NCBI GenBank assembly: GCA_019751935.1
Contig: JAIEMR010000095.1
Coordinates: 1-33,188, forward strand
Reading direction: 5' to 3'
Source of the DNA: Alphaproteobacteria bacterium
Lineage (GTDB): Bacteria > Pseudomonadota > Alphaproteobacteria > Paracaedibacterales > CAIULA01
Length of the DNA stretch: 33,188 nucleotides
Positions 9,091-19,186 of the stretch are shown here, in pieces. The notes below the pieces were generated by a model. The model was not told where the DNA came from and did no database searches. It was given only the letters and a program-made list of their open reading frames with translations. Position numbers and translations under genes: made by a program. How positions within the stretch are numbered: position 1 is the first letter of the stretch; each line of letters starts with the position of its first letter.

Positions 9091-9993
9091 CTACATAGAA
9101 GATTTAGAAGAAGATCTTAACTTTAATTTCTCTTGCGCTCTTTCTCGCGCCTCTGCCACAGTTTTAAAGCGTTTTAACTGGGCTTCATGCGCGTCAGCTC
9201 TTTCTTGAAGAGCGGTTTTTGCTGAAATGGCGGCGGCACCTCCAACAGCTAAGATTGGACCTATTGTTGTTTCACCTGAAAGCGTTAAAACTGCCCCTGT
9301 TACAGCTGCTGTAGGCCCAACGAGTGATAAGATTCTGCTAAGGACTCGATCGGCTTTTGAAGCACATCCTATATAGGATTGATAGGTTTGACTCATTCCA
9401 AAAAATTCATCACTTAATCTTTCAACTTCTTCAGGTGTTAAGTCAGCTGCTTTAACAATTTTTCTTTTCCGACTTTCAATCTCGCTTTCTATTTCTGCTG
9501 CTTCACTTCGCGAATTTTCCAAAAGGATTTTTCCAGACTCATTCAAAAACACCCCAAATCCTGCAAGCGCAACACCAGCTTGTGCGCGAGGATTAGATAA
9601 ATCTGAATATATTGCAACTAACGTTCCTCCGGCCGCAGAAATAGGGATCCCTACGATAGAAAGAATATTTCCAGTAATACGTTCACCCCAGGCTGTAAAA
9701 CTGCGCCATCTACTAATTGGTTGTTGATCTGATTCTTTTAATGAGGAAGGAGTTCTAAGGATTGCTTCTGGTTCAATAACGGTTCTAGATGTTGTTTGAT
9801 GTAATGATGAATTGCCATCAACAGTATCATGGAACACAAAAGGTTCGGTGACAGGATGAATTACTGATGAGGCTTGATGCAAACCTTTCAGCTCTAATCC
9901 AGATTCCAAATCTAGATTACGGCTGCTTGCATGAGTATTTGCTGCCAATGATAAATATAAAACAAAAGACAATAATAAATTATTTACTTTCAT
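9091..9993 (-). CDS. Secreted/membrane orphan protein, family 2 copy a (two glycine-rich hydrophobic hairpins plus charged helices)
   Basis: Signal peptide MKVNNLLLSFVLYLSLAANTHA/SS. Hydrophobic hairpins are ITGNILSIVGIPISAAGGTLVAIY...AGVALAGFGVFL and VLSRILSLVGPTAAVTGAVLTLSGETTIGPILAVGGAAAISA. It is paralogous to 16361..17146 (LTPEEVERLSDEFFG/LSPDEMEELSDEFFG, SGETTIGP/SGDTTVGP). Confidence 0.7.
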   Translation of the reverse strand: MKVNNLLLSFVLYLSLAANTHASSRNLDLESGLELKGLHQASSVIHPVTEPFVFHDTVDGNSSLHQTTSRTVIEPEAILRTPSSLKESDQQPISRWRSFTAWGERITGNILSIVGIPISAAGGTLVAIYSDLSNPRAQAGVALAGFGVFLNESGKILLENSRSEAAEIESEIESRKRKIVKAADLTPEEVERLSDEFFGMSQTYQSYIGCASKADRVLSRILSLVGPTAAVTGAVLTLSGETTIGPILAVGGAAAISAKTALQERADAHEAQLKRFKTVAEARERAQEKLKLRSSSKSSM

Positions 9994-10107: not shown

Positions 10108-10320
10108 TTAAAGAATGAATTCTTCTATGCTGGTTTCTGCTCTCATTCTTTGTTCAGCTCTTTTTACAGTTTCACGCAGTTCCAACTGTTCTTCATAAGT
10201 ATCAGCTTTCTTTTTGAATGATTCTCTAACAGTAAAAATGGTGTTCCAAAGGATGGGAGATCTAAGGATTTTTGCCCACGGTAAATCGTCCTTAATCATG
10301 GCGGGGCTTCTAGGTGACAA
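10108..10320 (-). pseudogene. Truncated remnant of a family 2 gene (C-terminal charged helix only)
   Basis: KADTYEEQLELRETVKRAEQR aligns with RADAHEAQLKRFKTVAEARER at the C-terminus of 9091..9993. The signal peptide and both hydrophobic hairpins are missing. It lies directly between a family 1 and a family 2 gene on the same strand. Confidence 0.5.
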
Positions 10321-10355
10321 AAAGAAATTATATATTTATTTAATTGTGTATTTTT

Positions 10356-10413: not shown

Positions 10414-11910
10414 TTAGAAATCCAAAGCTTCAGAATCTGCGCTTAAATGTCCCCTCACGTTTGCAAAAAGAGCTTTTGAGTTTATAGATGCTTCATTTGG
10501 CCAACCAGTTAAGGTGCCATCAATAAAATCAAATATTTCGTCTTCATTTAATTTTTGTGCACGTGGAGCCGTGGCAGAACCCTTATCAAATTCATTCAAA
10601 GAATACAAGGCAACCACAGTACATTTTAAATGATGGCGCATAAGTCTATGCATTTTATCTTCTGTGACTACTTTAAAAGGCCTTCTTTGGAGGGCAGTTT
10701 TTAGGTGGTCGACATTGGTTCTAAAGTCACTATCTGAATCATTAGATAGAAGCTGCATTACATATTTCCTTATACCCCATACATATGTTTCTGCTTCATC
10801 TTCAGTGGCTTTTCTATACTTGACGCCAAATCTGCTGGTACCTGTTATAAGCTGAACTGTTGCTTCTGGTAAGTCTTGATTATATTGATGGTCGGCAACC
10901 ACACTCAAAATACGCCCGCTTAGAGGAAGTTTTTGGGCTTGCGCTGCATCTTCAGCGGAAAGCAGAGTATCATGGGCCTTAAAAAAGCCTCTCCAAAGTT
11001 CATTCGCTTTCACTCTTTCTACGTCATTTGAAGAATTTTCCATCAATAAAAAGGCAGTGTGTACACCTGTTTGAGGGTGCTGCGTGGCAACAGTTTCAAA
11101 GGCTATTGAGGCAAAATCGAAGGGCTCCAAAGTGTCTCCTTGATCTCCTATAAGCTTCCTTATATATAGAGGATATTGACCCATTAGGATATCTTGCCAC
11201 AATGCATTGCTAAAACCTTGCGATCTATAGCGTGCCATATTAGGGTTTCTTGCAACAACAAAGTAAGGCAAATCGTGCTTATTCCAATCAGCATCGATAC
11301 TCTCAGCAGTATTTCCATAGACATCTTCTTGGTCAATATCTACACCTTTCATTCTAAGAGTAGTTAACTTTTTAGTAGTCTCAGGATCTCTCATTGCTAA
11401 TGCCATTAAGACTGTGTCGTTTTCTGCCATTAAGACTGTGTCGTCTGGATCACTGCGCGAAGCAGTTACTAAACTGGTAAAACGGTAATTTATTGGCTCC
11501 TGAGATAAAAATCTATCAAATGAACGGCTATCTTTTACATACTCAAGCAACAAATCACCAACAACTACATCATCACCAACTGTATCTGTAAATAAGTCAA
11601 ATTGATCTAATCTAATAAGATGAAGATAGTTTCGTCCTGCATTATCCCTATATTTTATTAAATGCGTTTTTAACTCTTGGGGAGGAGTTGAGCTAATGAC
11701 AGATGCTAGATCCACGCTTCCTATGTCTTGTTCATCTTCATCTCCATCTTCTGTACCATCCATGACAGATAAATTTTCAGTATCAGACCCTTTATCCGAA
11801 TCCAAAGGATCAGATGCCATCGCTGCATTGGAAAAAATGGCTAAAACAAATACCAGTACAAAAATGCTGAACTTCGACAAAAATTTGGTGCGAAGACTTA
11901 AAAGATGCAT
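10414..11910 (-). CDS. Secreted orphan protein, family 1 copy b (ankyrin-like repeat signature; paralogue of 701..2746)
   Basis: Signal peptide MHLLSLRTKFLSKFSIFVLVFVLAIFSNAAMA/SD, then an acidic stretch (EDGDEDEQD) and the ANK-like TVLMALAMRDPETTKKLTTLRMKGVDIDQEDVYGNTAESI. The C-terminal blocks are colinear with 701..2746. Confidence 0.75.
   Translation of the reverse strand: MHLLSLRTKFLSKFSIFVLVFVLAIFSNAAMASDPLDSDKGSDTENLSVMDGTEDGDEDEQDIGSVDLASVISSTPPQELKTHLIKYRDNAGRNYLHLIRLDQFDLFTDTVGDDVVVGDLLLEYVKDSRSFDRFLSQEPINYRFTSLVTASRSDPDDTVLMAENDTVLMALAMRDPETTKKLTTLRMKGVDIDQEDVYGNTAESIDADWNKHDLPYFVVARNPNMARYRSQGFSNALWQDILMGQYPLYIRKLIGDQGDTLEPFDFASIAFETVATQHPQTGVHTAFLLMENSSNDVERVKANELWRGFFKAHDTLLSAEDAAQAQKLPLSGRILSVVADHQYNQDLPEATVQLITGTSRFGVKYRKATEDEAETYVWGIRKYVMQLLSNDSDSDFRTNVDHLKTALQRRPFKVVTEDKMHRLMRHHLKCTVVALYSLNEFDKGSATAPRAQKLNEDEIFDFIDGTLTGWPNEASINSKALFANVRGHLSADSEALDF
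11402..11449 (-). repeat. In-frame 24-bp tandem duplication inside 10414..11910
   Basis: GCCATTAAGACTGTGTCGT occurs at 11402 and again at 11426 (period 24). It encodes DTVLMAEN-DTVLMALA. Confidence 0.85.
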
Positions 11911-12857: not shown

Positions 12858-14345
12858 ATGCAGATTTCATTTCAAAAGACTCTTGGAGAATCCAGTGGAA
12901 CATTGGTGCTTGGTGTTTTTGAAGAAAGAGCCTTAACCAGATCAGCGCAGATTATTGATTCGCAAATTCAAGGAACCCTAAAAAAGGCTATCGAAAACAG
13001 TCCATTTAGCGGGAAAAAGGATGAAATAATTTCAATCGTAGCGCCGCATGGTATTCAAAATAATCAGATTCTGCTTGTGGGCCTTGGCAATCCAAAAGGG
13101 ATGTCATCACTTGATTTTCAGCAATTAGGCGGCAAGCTTATGGCTGCACTTTGTAAAGGTAAAGACACCCAAGTGGTTGTCGATATTATGGATGATAAAA
13201 TACGACAATTGCCTGAGATGATTGCAAATGTTGCAGCTGGAATGAATCTTCGTTCTTGGAAATTTGATAAATACAAAACCAAGAAAAAAGAAGAATCGCA
13301 TCTGAAGGAGCTTGTTTTTATAACACCTGAGCCAACTGTCTCAGAAAAAGCTTTCGAACCCTTAAAGCACATTGCCGAAGGTGTTGCCTTGACCCGTCAT
13401 GTGGTCTCTGAGCCGCCAAATATTCTCTATCCTGAATCGATGGCAGAAATCGCCTCTGAACTTAAACGTCTTAAGGTAGGCGTTGAAGTTCTTGATGAGA
13501 AGCACATGAAGAAACTCGGAATGGGTGCGCTTTTGGGTGTGGGGCAAGGCAGTATTCGGGAATCAAAACTGATCGTCCTCGAGTGGATGCATGGCCCAAA
13601 GGGTGAGCCGCCCGTTGCTTTTATTGGCAAAGGGGTGACATTTGACACCGGCGGTATTTCCATAAAACCTTCTAATGGTATGGAAGACATGAAATACGAT
13701 ATGGCCGGATCTGGCGTTGTTTTAGGATTGTTCAAAGCGCTGGCGCTTCGAGGCGCCAAAGTCAATGCGGTTGGTATTATGGGAATGGTTGAAAACATGC
13801 CATCTGGGTCTGCTCAACGTCCAGCGGATGTTGTGACATCTATGTCCGGCCAAACCATTGAGGTTATCAATACGGATGCTGAAGGGCGATTGGTTTTAGC
13901 AGATGCGTTGTGGTATACCCAAGACCGCTTTAAACCACAGGCAATGATTGACCTTGCAACCTTAACGGGTGCAATTTCCGTAGCGTTAGGCTGGGAATAT
14001 GCAGGGATATTTTCCAATAATGATGAACTTGTTCGTAAATTAACGGATGCTGGTAATAATGTTGGCGAAAAGCTATGGCGTTTGCCGATGGGTGATTCTT
14101 ATGACAAAGACATCGATTCAGAGATTGCGGATGTTAAAAACACAGGATCTGGCCGAGGTGCAGGCAGTATTACCGCAGCGCAATTCTTGCAACGCTTTGT
14201 CAATAATGTTCCTTGGGCGCATTTGGACATAGCAGGTATGGCCTGGGAAAAGAAAGGTAAGCCATTGGTTGGTAAAGGTGCCTCTGCTTTTGGTGTCAGG
14301 CTGCTCAATGAATTCCTAATGAAATATTACGAAGATAGAACTTAG
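12858..14345 (+). CDS. pepA: Leucyl aminopeptidase (M17)
   Basis: VGKGVTFDTGGISIKP, NTDAEGRLVLADAL and DIAGMAW motifs; 495 aa. Confidence 0.93.
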   Translation: MQISFQKTLGESSGTLVLGVFEERALTRSAQIIDSQIQGTLKKAIENSPFSGKKDEIISIVAPHGIQNNQILLVGLGNPKGMSSLDFQQLGGKLMAALCKGKDTQVVVDIMDDKIRQLPEMIANVAAGMNLRSWKFDKYKTKKKEESHLKELVFITPEPTVSEKAFEPLKHIAEGVALTRHVVSEPPNILYPESMAEIASELKRLKVGVEVLDEKHMKKLGMGALLGVGQGSIRESKLIVLEWMHGPKGEPPVAFIGKGVTFDTGGISIKPSNGMEDMKYDMAGSGVVLGLFKALALRGAKVNAVGIMGMVENMPSGSAQRPADVVTSMSGQTIEVINTDAEGRLVLADALWYTQDRFKPQAMIDLATLTGAISVALGWEYAGIFSNNDELVRKLTDAGNNVGEKLWRLPMGDSYDKDIDSEIADVKNTGSGRGAGSITAAQFLQRFVNNVPWAHLDIAGMAWEKKGKPLVGKGASAFGVRLLNEFLMKYYEDRT

Positions 14346-15877
14346 GCGTGCGATTTTAACGCTCCATCCGGCCCTAGTTTGATGTATTTAACCATTAAAA
14401 ATACATCAACGATGGCAAGGGTTGTATAAAACACAACAAAGCCAATAAGCGTAAACCAAACAGAGCTGGCATTAACAGCTGATGCTGCGCAAAATGTTGG
14501 CAGGACCCCTTCAATCGCCCAAGGTTGACGGCCGTGTTCTGCCACAAACCACCCCAGTTCCGCTGCAATCCATGGGAATGGTAAACTGATGATAGCCAGT
14601 TTTAAAAACCATCGATGCTTTTCAAAGCGCCTTCGAGTCGAAAGATAAAAGGCAAAGGCGAAAAATCCTATAAAGAAAAGCCCAAACCCAACCATTAAGC
14701 GAAATGACCAAAACAGCCAGGGAACGTTTGGTATGGTTGAATTCGCAGCCATTTTGATCTGATCATCGCTCGCCCCTAAGACGGGATCATGATATCGCTT
14801 TAACAAAAGGGCGTAGCCTAGATCTTTTGAATGCGCTTCAAAAATTTGACGAGCGCTTTGATTGTGACGATCAACGCGAAGGTCTTTTAATGCTTTATAG
14901 GCGAGCAAGCCCATTCTGATGCGCTGCTCAGCAAGTTTAACCAAATCCTGAATGCCTGGGATTTCTTGATCTAAAGAGCGCGTTGCAATCAAACCTAATA
15001 TCCAAGGAACCTTTACCTCATAATGTGTTTTGTGATTATCAATATCAGGAATACCAAAAACCACAAAACCTGCAGGGGCGGGCTCAGTTTCCCACATGGC
15101 TTCGATAGCTGCGACCTTCATTTTTTGGTTTTGGGAAGCCGTATAACCGCTTTCATCGCCTAAGACCACAACTGATAAGGCTGCAGCTAATCCAAAGCTT
15201 GCAGCAACCGTCATTGACCGTTTGGCAATCTCAAGGTGACGTCCTTTTAAGAGGTAAAAAGCGCTGACGCCAAATACAAAAATGGCCCCAGTGACATAGC
15301 CGGCGCTGACTGTATGAACAACTTTACTTTGAGCAACAGGATTAAAAAATATCTCATAAAACGAGGTTAATTCCATACGCATAGTATCAGGGTTAAAAGC
15401 TGATCCCACAGGGTTTTGCATCCAGGCATTGGCAATTAAAATCCATAAAGCTGAAAAGTTACTGCCGATGGCAACCATCCACGTGGCGGTTAAATGCCCG
15501 ATTTTAGATAGTTTGTTCCAGCCAAAGAAAAACAAACCAATAAAGGTAGCCTCTAAGAAAAAGGCCATTAACCCTTCGATTGCAAGGAGTGATCCAAAGA
15601 TATCGCCCACATAATGGGAATAATAGGCCCAGTTGGTGCCAAACTGAAATTCAAGGGTAATCCCCGTTGCAACGCCCATGGCAAAATTAATGCCAAATAA
15701 AAGACCCCAAAATTTGGTCATTTGTTTCCAAATAGGGCGACCCGTCATTACATAGACGCTTTCCATAATGGCAATCAACAGTGAGAGCCCAAGCGTTAGT
15801 GGCACAAATAAAAAGTGATACATGGCCGTTAAGCCAAATTGGATACGGGATAAAAGAACGACAGTTGGATCAATCAT
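14342..15877 (-). CDS. cydA: Cytochrome bd-type ubiquinol oxidase subunit I
   Basis: FGLTAMYHFLFVPLTLGL at the N-terminus, a Q-loop region, and GWFVAEHGRQPW near the C-terminus; 511 aa, polytopic. No subunit II ORF follows. Confidence 0.9.
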   Translation of the reverse strand: MIDPTVVLLSRIQFGLTAMYHFLFVPLTLGLSLLIAIMESVYVMTGRPIWKQMTKFWGLLFGINFAMGVATGITLEFQFGTNWAYYSHYVGDIFGSLLAIEGLMAFFLEATFIGLFFFGWNKLSKIGHLTATWMVAIGSNFSALWILIANAWMQNPVGSAFNPDTMRMELTSFYEIFFNPVAQSKVVHTVSAGYVTGAIFVFGVSAFYLLKGRHLEIAKRSMTVAASFGLAAALSVVVLGDESGYTASQNQKMKVAAIEAMWETEPAPAGFVVFGIPDIDNHKTHYEVKVPWILGLIATRSLDQEIPGIQDLVKLAEQRIRMGLLAYKALKDLRVDRHNQSARQIFEAHSKDLGYALLLKRYHDPVLGASDDQIKMAANSTIPNVPWLFWSFRLMVGFGLFFIGFFAFAFYLSTRRRFEKHRWFLKLAIISLPFPWIAAELGWFVAEHGRQPWAIEGVLPTFCAASAVNASSVWFTLIGFVVFYTTLAIVDVFLMVKYIKLGPDGALKSHA

Positions 15878-16093
15878 GGTTTACTAACTTTTGAGACAAT
15901 TCAGTTGGTGTTATTGTTTGTTTTTGAACAGGGGCTATACGGAAAAAAACCCAAAGGATCACTATTTTGGCAAGGATTAAAACAGCCAATTTTCGGCCCA
16001 AAGGGTGCCAATTCTGAAAGAATAGTAATTTGTTTAGCATTCTGATCATACGGTAAAATAATTACAATTTTCGTTATCATGAGACACAAGGGA

Positions 16094-16222
16094 CATGATG
16101 ATCAACCAATCCCCTCGTCATCCACGAGGAGCGAAGCGACGTGGCGATCCAGAGGCTGTTTCTGGATGGCCACGCAACTCGTTGCTCGCCACGACGACAG
16201 TGTCTGGCATGATGACGAAAAC
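16094..16222 (-). repeat. Nested-palindrome intergenic repeat, copy A (inverted relative to copies B and C)
   Basis: CCTCGTCATCCACGAGG hairpin, then CGTGGCGATCCAG-loop-CTGGATGGCCACG. It aligns with the reverse complement of 20738..20855. End coordinates are approximate. Confidence 0.7.
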
Positions 16223-16360: not shown

Positions 16361-17146
16361 ATGAAAATAGATCGTTTATTTTTATTAGGTCTTGTTTGTT
16401 TTTTCCTGACAACAAGTACGTCAATCAGTTCCACAAAAGAAGAAAAGCATGGTCCTGATATTGAAATGGGCGGTCCACCTGCGATAACTTCTGCAATGCA
16501 GCCCGTGCGGACAGAAGAGGTAAGAGTTGATGTTAATCATGGAGAAGGCATAAAACCAAAACACAGTATGTTTTCCCCGCTATGTAAGACAATCACAGGA
16601 TCAGTTTTGTCTCTCTCTGGGTATGTATTGATGGGAGCTGGAGGCATAGTAGTTGCTGAATCCCCACAGTCAGTGACATTGAGTACAGTGCTTTTAGGAG
16701 TTGGCGGTGCTGCAAAACAAGCCGGTGCAAAATTTCTTAACTCCGCTCAAGAGAATGCCGCTCATTTGACACAAGAGCTTGACGATCATGTAATGCTTGC
16801 GCGAACGGGAAGTTTATCACCCGATGAAATGGAAGAATTAAGTGATGAGTTTTTTGGAAAAAGTAAGATTTATGAACAACTATATTTAAAACACGCATTA
16901 TGCCTGGATAATACTTTTGCAACGATTTGTAGTTTAGTAAGTTTGCCTTTAGGTTTGGTTGGGTTTGGTTTTACAATGTCTGGAGACACTACGGTCGGTC
17001 CCACATTAATTGCAGCAGGTGTGGGGGTTCGTGATTTAGGGGGATGGTTTAAAAGTAGAGCAGAAGCCTTGTCGACACAAAAAAAGCGCATCGAAGCAAT
17101 GCATAAATTAAGAAAAGCGAGCGTTCAAGAGGCTGACGCTCGCTAA
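16361..17146 (+). CDS. Secreted/membrane orphan protein, family 2 copy b
   Basis: Signal-like N-terminus MKIDRLFLLGLVCFFLTTSTSISS. Hairpins are ITGSVLSLSGYVLMGAGGIVVAESPQSVTLSTVLLGVGGAA and FATICSLVSLPLGLVGFGFTMSGDTTVGPTLIAAGVGV. The charged C-terminal helix is homologous to that of 9091..9993. Confidence 0.7.
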   Translation: MKIDRLFLLGLVCFFLTTSTSISSTKEEKHGPDIEMGGPPAITSAMQPVRTEEVRVDVNHGEGIKPKHSMFSPLCKTITGSVLSLSGYVLMGAGGIVVAESPQSVTLSTVLLGVGGAAKQAGAKFLNSAQENAAHLTQELDDHVMLARTGSLSPDEMEELSDEFFGKSKIYEQLYLKHALCLDNTFATICSLVSLPLGLVGFGFTMSGDTTVGPTLIAAGVGVRDLGGWFKSRAEALSTQKKRIEAMHKLRKASVQEADAR

Positions 17147-17840: not shown

Positions 17841-18157
17841 ATGAAGTGGGAAGTTATTGTTCATCCAGACGTAATAGAAGAGCTTAGTCAGTTACCAGCT
17901 GATATGAAGGCTAAGCTACACGTCTGCTAGAATTAATCAATCAGGTGGGGCCTTTAGCACTTAGAGAGCCTCATGTTAAGAATTTGGGTAATAAACTTTG
18001 GGAGATTCGTCTATCTGGAAGAGATGGAATCTCTCGAGTCATCTATGTTGTGCTTTCACAAAAAAGGGTTGGTCTTTTGCATGCATTTGTTAAAAAAACA
18101 CAAAAGACTCCCAAACAAGCAATAGAATGTGCTCTCAAACGATTAAAGGAGATTTAA
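17841..18157 (+). pseudogene. HigB/Gp49-like (RelE-superfamily) toxin, frameshifted
   Basis: ATG 17841 reads MKWEVIVHPDVIEELSQLPADMKAKL and then hits TAG at 17928..17930. The -1 frame, open from 17915, continues RLLELINQVGPLALREPHVKNLGNKLWEIRL...LHAFVKKTQKTPKQAIECALKRLKEI. The KKTQKTP motif is typical of the Gp49/DUF891 toxin family. The junction (about 17916..17921) needs a single-base correction. Confidence 0.7.
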
Positions 18158-18447: not shown

Positions 18448-19186
18448 ATGATTTCTGACTTTGACCTTTTTCATCAATTACAGGCCGAGATTAGAAATAG
18501 TACTACTTCAGTGACAGATTAACTTAGAATAGCCAAACAACTTGCTACCAGATTAGATTTAAAAGAAGATCTTAAATGGATGGATTTGGAATTAAATGGT
18601 ATGAGGGGTTGAGTGCTGAAGAAATTCCTGCCTATAGACATTTAACAGGAGACCTAAGGCACAGAAATTAAATGGTTCGTGGAGATTAATTCGGATAAAT
18701 AATCGCGAAGATTATAAAAAAATTTCTGTGGTCCCCAATAACTCTTGCGTAGGAAGGATAGAGGAACTTTTAAAAAGTAAAAATGCCTCCTATAAACATG
18801 ACTATTCGTTAGAGGTTAAGCAGCATATTCTCGCACTTGAGCTTATGAAAACTCCTGCCTTAGATGTTGTTTTAGAGGTATCTCATGGTGAAATTTTTGG
18901 TATTATCGATGCAGTCAAAACTAAAATTCATGATTCTTGTTCAAAAGTAGAGGAGCAGGGACTTGTGAGAGAGAAAACAAATTTAACATCTCAAACACAG
19001 CCAAATGCACTAATAATCAATAATTTTCATGGACCCACCGCTATAGCAGCCATGGGGAATGTCAGCAATCAAGGTAATATTAACCTTTCTCAGACTAACG
19101 AAGCCCCATCCAATGGAAAGATTTTTAGCTTTTTTAAAAACCTTGTGCTCAAATTATGTGGATGGGTAAAAACGTTTTTCAGTTGA
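18448..19186 (+). pseudogene. Degraded gene, N-terminus AbiTii-like (abortive-infection family), with one nonsense codon and at least two frameshifts
   Basis: ATG 18448 reads MISDFDLFHQLQAEIRNSTTSVTD, then TAA at 18520..18522, then LRIAKQLATRLDLKEDLKWMDLELNG. A frame change near 18600 gives YEGLSAEEIPAYRHLTGDL. A second frame change between about 18638 and 18668 joins the ORF listed at 18728..19186. The ELNGY...IPxYR pattern is what I recall from AbiTii-type N-termini. Confidence 0.5.

Follow-up and report, generated by a model that had tools for sequence, protein, structure and literature searches.

A fast-diverging family of predicted Sec-exported double-hairpin proteins in a narrow clade of uncultured alphaproteobacteria

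The 33,188-nucleotide stretch of DNA analysed here (the window; contig JAIEMR010000095.1 of the alphaproteobacterial assembly GCA_019751935.1) carries two intact paralogous genes, A and B, and the remnant of a third, C, of a protein family with a predicted helical hairpin module in two copies. The explanation that we tentatively favour is that these are lineage-restricted, fast-diverging, Sec-exported proteins whose double hairpin would embed in a membrane, entering it from outside the cytoplasm. Once the protein had been exported by Sec, its apolar end would bury itself in the lipid bilayer as a double hairpin, and the N-terminal tail, the stalk and the basic C-terminus would stay on the side of entry (the extracytoplasmic side). 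The membrane entered would be at the outer face of the envelope or lie beyond it. The family genes, their parts and the constant neighbour of A are as follows.

16361..17146, + strand: paralogue A, an intact open reading frame (ORF) of 261 amino acids (aa), with orthologues that occupy the same slot between cydA and secB in loci L001, L002 and L088
16361..16432, + strand: A, predicted Sec-type signal peptide, aa 1-24, with a basic n-region, an 11-aa h-region and small residues at -3/-1
16433..16576, + strand: A, N-terminal tail (aa 25-72), hypervariable and disordered, containing the short motif D-I-E-M-G, with a predicted local distance difference test score (pLDDT) of <50 at residues 17-68
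16577..16807, + strand: A, hairpin 1 (H1 aa 73-100, turn ESPQS, H2 aa 102-149), AlphaFold pLDDT 83-94
16820..17140, + strand: A, hairpin 2 (H3 aa 154-206, turn SGDTTV, H4 aa 212-260), modelled by AlphaFold and homologous to hairpin 1
9091..9993, - strand: paralogue B, an intact ORF of 300 aa
9922..9993, - strand: B, predicted signal peptide
9712..9921, - strand: B, tail
9610..9711 (H1), 9451..9591 (H2), 9280..9435 (H3) and 9100..9264 (H4), - strand: B, predicted helices
10144..10335, - strand: pseudogene of paralogue C, matched by tblastn with P0007 and the 352-aa paralogue of L002 and by the family hidden Markov model (HMM; E=1.9e-5)
14342..15877, - strand: cydA, cytochrome bd subunit I, the constant divergent neighbour of A-type genes, given for context only

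An initial annotation of the window had placed the ORFs of A and B at these positions, where both were found together with every peptide quoted for them. The two proteins are paralogues (32% identity over 188 aligned aa, E=5e-21) with LSPDEMEELSDEFFG / LTPEEVERLSDEFFG common to both, and B is 69% identical to its orthologue in L002. The same annotation had described a signal-like N-terminus and a variable polar tail followed by two hydrophobic hairpins, each leading into a charged helix, and this architecture is kept in 17 family sequences and recurs in both AlphaFold models. Each full-length member starts with a basic n-region, a hydrophobic core of 11-13 residues and a small/Ala column, after which comes a polar tail rich in Ser, Thr and Pro; an x-x-A cleavage-type column is conserved in most members of the alignment, cleavage is predicted after Ala or Ser with polar residues following, and no lipobox (L-[AS]-[GA]-C) was found in family members. 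The N-termini are predicted to be Sec-type signal peptides. A D-[LI]-E-x-G motif lies a few residues past the predicted cleavage site in about half of the members (~33-37 in A, window ~16457..16471), is absent from the P0009-P0014 subgroup and is surrounded by tail sequence that is otherwise hypervariable.

AlphaFold2 was run separately for A and B, and both models contained a signal helix, a disordered tail (residues 17-68 in A and 20-91 in B) and four long helices forming two hairpins in one elongated bundle. The core had a pLDDT of about 80-94 in A (predicted template modelling score, pTM, 0.63; signal helix at 3-18, then disorder) and about 80-93 in B (helices 95-128, 135-181, 187-238 and 244-298). 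One end of the modelled antiparallel bundle, comprising both hairpin turns and ~80 residues around them, is wholly apolar, and the other is a charged three-helix stalk rich in Lys, Arg and Glu. In hairpin 1 of A the apolar stretch covers aa 78-118 and H2 then runs on as a charged stalk helix, H3 starts with an S-P-D-E cap and the motif LSDEFF, and H4 forms the Lys/Arg/Glu-rich C-terminal helix. A conserved disulfide between a Cys near residues 71-75 and Cys178 was considered and rejected, as the cysteines do not co-occur consistently.

The suggestion in the initial annotation that the hairpin unit is duplicated was borne out by profile-profile comparison with hhalign, in which unit 1 (A 70-150) matched unit 2 (A 176-258) with a probability of 97.6%, E=4.6e-12 and a score of 61, compared to 17 for the reversed profile and no more than 12.4 for 20 column shuffles, indicating that the conserved domain of ~190 aa arose via tandem duplication of one helical hairpin. 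The columns that hold a small residue in 100% of sequences (A numbering) are 80/87/94, 108/115/122/129, 187/194/201 and 213/220, then 227/234, which are exact heptads, so that a Gly or other small residue stands at every seventh position (Gx6G) on all four helices. Invariant residues are G80, G94, G115 and G122 in hairpin 1, where G87 is present in 94% of sequences, and L160, F164, G201, G213 and G220 in hairpin 2. Although A itself has GxxxA/AxxxG pairs, none is conserved family-wide, and the earlier reading of the small-residue spacing as a GxxxG/AxxxG glycine zipper is replaced here because the conserved columns are spaced by seven instead. Gx6G is a spacing tied to tight antiparallel helix pairs, and in these proteins it would permit very close antiparallel helix packing.

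The composition of the hairpins points to a membrane-seeking end. Strongly polar residues make up 0-4% of the four apolar segments (~62 aligned positions in 17 sequences) compared to 35-47% of the stalk helices, and 0 of 391 positions in the apolar segments of H2 and H4 are charged, so that the apolar end of the modelled bundle has no water-facing side. Kyte-Doolittle hydropathy over 19 residues (KD19) was 1.7-2.0 for H1 and H3, which is of transmembrane (TM) grade when set beside 35 genuine TM helices from CydA, a major facilitator superfamily (MFS) transporter, an aquaporin, a Bax1-I protein and a small ORF of the same window (KD19 1.2-2.9, median 1.9). The two hairpins have turns of 5-11 aa, and TM-grade values occur in the first helix of each only; the lobes of the bilobed hydrophobic segments initially described are unequal, the second helix being weakly hydrophobic with 11-14 uncharged residues.

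The hairpin turns contain Asp or Glu, and long inserts occur in them in two members, a 32-aa Ser/Thr/Asn-rich insert in turn 1 of P0009 and a 15-aa loop in turn 2 of P0014, which means that the turns must be solvent-exposed and hence speaks for hairpins that span the membrane completely, or for a tip in solution, and against a shallow dip. In the stalk-side flanks Lys and Arg together reach 0.15-0.20 per residue; the turns have 0.04-0.06 and, with 0.10-0.12 Asp plus Glu, are net acidic. Given a Sec-exported N-terminus and the modelled topology, a protein held in the inner membrane would have an extracytoplasmic stalk and cytoplasmic turns, which would reverse the positive-inside rule, and from this reversed charge bias we infer that the protein more probably enters its membrane once exported, approaching from the extracytoplasmic side, and that this membrane is more probably not the energised inner one. 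The charge distribution is thus compatible with the earlier proposal that the proteins may insert into an outer or host membrane and display their charged helices.

The family diverges far faster than the genes around it. Between the window and L001/L002 the nonsynonymous divergence (dN) of A was 0.47-0.52 and its ratio to synonymous divergence (dN/dS) was 0.33-0.38, and B compared between the window and L002 gave a dN of 0.21 and a dN/dS of 0.28; for secB, cydA, dnaQ and glmU (window against L001/L002) dN was 0.02-0.06 and dN/dS 0.02-0.06. Synonymous divergence (dS) was similar across the compared genes (0.75-1.4), and dN in the family was 4-25 times that of neighbouring genes. Values of 0.28-0.38 for dN/dS mark these as real genes kept under purifying selection. 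Variation is greatest in the N-terminal tail (18-54% identity between orthologues with many insertions and deletions, and 20-22% for the tail of A), and hairpin 2 and the LSDEFF-bearing helix are the most conserved.

Judged by the searches made, the family is confined to a narrow clade of uncultured alphaproteobacteria and is new as a sequence family. An exhaustive search of 1.84 billion representative proteins with an HMM of the A/B profile gave 15 matches, 13 of which were genuine family clusters (240-316 aa) and two of which were repeat artefacts, and a pattern scan of metagenomes added two loci. Word-indexed homologue searches returned only the query itself and P0014, an exact-sequence look-up of A among contigs gave nothing, a pattern scan of 185,579 genomes, whose patterns were too strict, gave no match, and further homologues were reached by synteny via CydA. 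When the family HMM was run on 90 sequence sources (the window and the collected loci) it matched the window, L001-L003 and L081-L084 only, with nothing in L004-L007 or in any free-living proteobacterium. All traced members belong to an alphaproteobacterial lineage of metagenome-assembled genomes (MAGs). The CydA of the window is 96% identical to that of L001/L002 (uncultured alphaproteobacterial MAG contigs), 83% to that of L003 and 76-78% to those of L004-L006, and its nearest named match, at 72%, is from the amoeba symbiont Ca. Odyssella thessalonicensis (Holosporales, Paracaedibacteraceae), so that on this marker and gene content the lineage probably lies near Holosporales.

The remnant copy needs some revision of what was first said of it. 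It was listed as a family member at ORF 10108..10320 (- strand, 70 aa), and this membership holds in that the sequence matches the third paralogue and the family HMM, but its extent is 10144..10335, reaching slightly past that ORF, and the ORF showed no significant similarity to B. The remnant is 82% identical over 33 aa to P0007, the full-length third paralogue, and 58% identical over 53 aa to the 352-aa copy of the third paralogue in L002. It joins, in one frame, residues ~23-37 of the third paralogue to residues ~251-283 of the C-terminal helix, and as it fuses these two ends it is an in-frame internal-deletion derivative without hairpins; no signal peptide is left because stop codons sit upstream in the same frame. 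On these alignments the remnant is a pseudogene, with an in-frame internal deletion of ~213 codons having removed both hairpins and with the start and signal peptide lost. Copy number differs between lineages, with one pseudogene in the window, three intact copies in L002 and a tandem pair in L084.

Comparison with known families gave no assignment. In Pfam and NCBIfam, A, B, the remnant and a 498-aa neighbouring protein had no match above threshold, a Pfam hmmscan of the 17 members, run down to E<=10, turned up no more than isolated two-TM domains of unknown function below threshold (DUF7533, CyanoTRADDas_TM), and a PDB sequence-profile search returned only noise (WD40), so that no ordinary periplasmic or lipoprotein family was matched in Pfam, NCBIfam or the PDB profiles. 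Foldseek with the models of A and B against PDB, and of A against BFVD, found no match with E<0.1; the nearest neighbours were single-chain four-helix bundles made by design (TMt ~0.5), a likeness that is not significant as a sign of homology, and far weaker ones were the pore forms of AhlB, SmhB and MakA (E 0.12-3, TM-score 0.15-0.25). A relationship to ClyA-family or tripartite alpha pore-forming toxins was rejected, since this fold similarity is not significant, as was one to CpxP/Spy (LTXXQ) via 'LTPEQ', which is a single L-[ST]-P-E-[EQ] helix cap with no Pfam or NCBIfam match.

The initial annotation had called the architecture Inc-like. Inc proteins, which localise to the chlamydial inclusion membrane, are defined by at least one bilobed domain with two TM helices of 15-32 aa and a loop of <30 aa free of Lys, Arg, Asp and Glu (Dehoux et al., PMC3048545), have an N-terminal type III signal, are restricted to Chlamydiae and are enriched in coiled coils (PMC3048545). 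Common to them and the present proteins are hydrophobic hairpins of ~40-60 aa, one or two per protein, with a short loop and flanking helices prone to coiled coils, termini predicted on the same side, a length of ~250-300 aa, low sequence conservation, lineage restriction and genes in variable hot spots (PMC3048545). Unlike Inc proteins, the present ones are alphaproteobacterial and not chlamydial, have a Sec signal peptide in place of a type III signal, carry Asp or Glu in hairpin loops that are uncharged in Inc proteins, and have a short, weakly hydrophobic second lobe and an invariant heptad of glycines. As a family assignment the Inc reading is not supported (Sec signals, acidic turns, and no Inc/IncA model among the matches of the 17 members at E<=10), and the likeness is one of architectural analogy, not of ancestry or delivery route.

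In glycine-zipper outer-membrane lipoproteins, which are exported by Sec, a glycine-rich, weakly hydrophobic hairpin is not retained in the inner membrane but lodges in the outer one. The glycine-zipper 2TM lipoproteins (SlyB/PCP, Rickettsia 17-kDa antigen, YfgH) share the exported Gly-rich helical hairpin with the present family and offer a precedent for it as an outer-membrane anchor, but they differ in having a lipobox Cys, a Gly spacing of 4 instead of 7, and one hairpin with a beta domain compared to two hairpins with a long helical stalk; the Rick_17kDa_Anti, Gly-zipper_Omp/YMGG and glycine-zipper 2TM models were not matched by any of the 17 members in hmmscan at E<=10. Hairpin toxins tolerate water up to the moment when an apolar helical hairpin enters the membrane from the cis side; in some of them the hairpin tips carry acidic residues. 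Such toxins and translocation domains (colicin pore domains, the diphtheria toxin T domain, the ClyA-family AhlB/SmhB/MakA) are likewise all-helical with an apolar hairpin, but there is no significant fold or sequence similarity (E>=0.1, TM-score <=0.25), size and helix count differ, and the modelled apolar end of the present proteins is not shielded by amphipathic helices. By analogy, then, the family may function in a manner reminiscent of Inc proteins or of glycine-rich hairpin anchors of the outer membrane while belonging to neither, and would represent a hairpin-anchored exported protein type of intracellular bacteria whose sequence family is itself new.

The genes lie among housekeeping genes (glmU, dnaQ, pepA, cydA, secB, thyX, recR, tamB, dapD/E). 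An A-type gene is directly and divergently upstream of cydA in the window, L001, L002, L003, L081-L083, L088 and the P0014 contig, and its other neighbour varies (secB, a CCA-adding enzyme, an M24 peptidase, or another family member next to glmU); the B- and C-type genes form a tandem pair adjoining glmU. Relatives that lack the family have unrelated signal-peptide orphans in the position upstream of cydA (L004 8714..9088, L005 8105..8935, L006 6566..8491), suggesting that the cydA adjacency may reflect a persistent, variable "secreted-protein" slot and not a functional link.

Several points weigh against the reading of a double hairpin inserted after export. Both export and membrane insertion are deduced from features of the sequences, the alignments behind the AlphaFold models were shallow (14 sequences), and a high dN is no proof of surface or host exposure, being typical also of weakly constrained orphan genes. 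H2 and H4 have a KD19 of 0.9-1.5, which overlaps that of buried segments in soluble enzymes of the window, and the uncharged part of this second helix (11-14 residues) is short for a full bilayer span. H1 and H3 are hydrophobic enough that they might be retained by SecYEG in the inner membrane, and delivery to an outer membrane would lack an evident basis, as family members have neither a lipobox nor a β-barrel or known sorting signal. An ordinary polytopic inner-membrane protein would need no unknown sorting route: its four apolar segments would be integrated co-translationally by SecYEG/YidC after signal cleavage, with cytoplasmic turns, a periplasmic stalk and an envelope or respiratory role linked to cytochrome bd, for which the divergent cydA adjacency, the sole constant neighbourhood across rearranged lineages, and the hydropathy of H1 and H3, within the range of the organism's real TM helices, would both speak. 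Such a protein would however have acidic turns nearly free of Lys and Arg with periplasmic flanks rich in them, against the positive-inside rule, and apolar stretches of 11-14 residues in H2 and H4; a dN 4-25 times that of the neighbours, together with gene loss and duplication, would be unusual for a respiratory accessory factor, and the closest relatives with cydA but no family gene have unrelated secreted orphans in the same slot. We regard this explanation as rather unlikely. The low hydropathy of H2 and H4, in the range of soluble proteins, would also suit a soluble periplasmic helical bundle in which the Gly/Ala-rich apolar end was an oligomerisation core (Alacoil-type packing) and not a membrane anchor; heptad-spaced small residues are also known for tight antiparallel packing in soluble proteins, and designed four-helix bundles, which are soluble, are the closest fold matches. 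As the apolar end has no polar face (0-4% strongly polar residues), H1 and H3 are of TM grade, and the long polar turn inserts of P0009 and P0014 would fall at the centre of such a core, this seems improbable.

A host-directed membrane effector, whose released hairpins would insert in a food-vacuole or other host membrane and there anchor charged helices as Inc proteins do, or perturb or permeabilise the membrane, would fit the acidic, Lys/Arg-free tips and Lys/Arg-rich cis flanks, which suit cis-side insertion, as well as the fast divergence, hypervariable tail and paralogue turnover, and the sub-significant fold neighbours do include pore forms of AhlB, SmhB and MakA. In architecture, too, the proteins resemble Inc proteins (one or two hairpins, coiled-coil enrichment, ~280 aa, hot-spot genes; PMC3048545). 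However, the conserved secretion routes of Holosporales are described as Sec and a non-standard type VI system, and some members of the group are described as living in the cytoplasm of the host with no host-derived membrane around them (PMC11909080, PMC8163844). No route by which a Sec substrate would cross the outer membrane is evident, the fold matches have E>=0.1 and TM-score <=0.25, and the Pfam, NCBIfam and PDB-profile searches brought up no toxin or Inc homologue. Signal peptides are normally absent from type VI effectors, which counts further against such a role, and we consider it unlikely. A more specific scheme, and to us a still less likely one, is that these are Sec-dependent functional counterparts of Inc proteins or toxin translocation domains in Holosporales-related protist symbionts, which would be released from the envelope, have their acidic tips protonated in an acidifying food vacuole and drive the double hairpin into the host membrane. 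For the tentatively favoured insertion from the extracytoplasmic side, our preference as to the target is the bacterium's own outer membrane or envelope over a host membrane.

Further observations were made around the family genes. An FNR/CRP-type box in the cydA/A intergenic region was rejected as only AT-rich near-matches were present, promoter and terminator scans showed no enrichment over shuffles, and Rfam had no match in the window. The same region holds, at ~16068..16221, a GC-rich nested palindromic element within an AT-rich spacer (outer arms 16068-16088/16201-16221, inner arms 16140-16153/16161-16174), which looks like a miniature inverted-repeat transposable element (MITE), occurs once in the window and resembles sequence translated inside an L002 ORF ('SGWPRN...'). 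No cydB lies downstream of cydA (14342..15877, - strand), where the convergent pepA overlaps the cydA stop, likewise in L001, L002 and L088; in L081 no cydB-sized or Cyt_bd_oxida_II gene was called beside cydA, and in Ca. Odyssella (L007) cydB follows cydA immediately. A conserved hydrophobic ORF of 56-59 aa (15870..16049, - strand) overlaps the cydA start. Beyond secB are a Gp49/HigB-like toxin-type gene (17945..18157, + strand) and an AbiTii-like gene (18728..19186, + strand), recalling the toxin-antitoxin richness reported in a Paracaedibacter-like symbiont. A second orphan exported family may be represented by a 681-aa ORF (701..2746, - strand) and a 498-aa ORF (10414..11910, - strand), which are paralogues (29% over 477 aa, E=1e-45) with signal-peptide-like N-termini and no Pfam match; L002 has nothing between dnaQ and paralogue C, where the window has the 498-aa copy. 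A 696-aa ORF (3022..5112, + strand), unrelated to the 681-aa ORF, and a 236-aa ORF (5891..6601, + strand), whose product has a signal-peptide-like N-terminus and a Gly/Lys-rich segment, also had no Pfam match.

In reviews of Holosporales the type VI system is the sole candidate named for host interaction (PMC11909080, PMC8163844). Should the family be merely an envelope protein of unassigned role, it would be one more orphan family, and if the scheme of Sec-dependent counterparts of Inc proteins were true, the proteins would either help the bacterium to escape or present their fast-evolving tail and stalk to the host. With its strict Gx6G pattern, the double hairpin offers a clear case from nature of an antiparallel hairpin module that has been duplicated. 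To our knowledge, almost nothing is known of the host interaction of Holosporales-type protist symbionts, and a compact, predicted exported, fast-evolving and lineage-unique family with a predicted membrane-inserting module is a concrete candidate for the biology of their surface or host interface.

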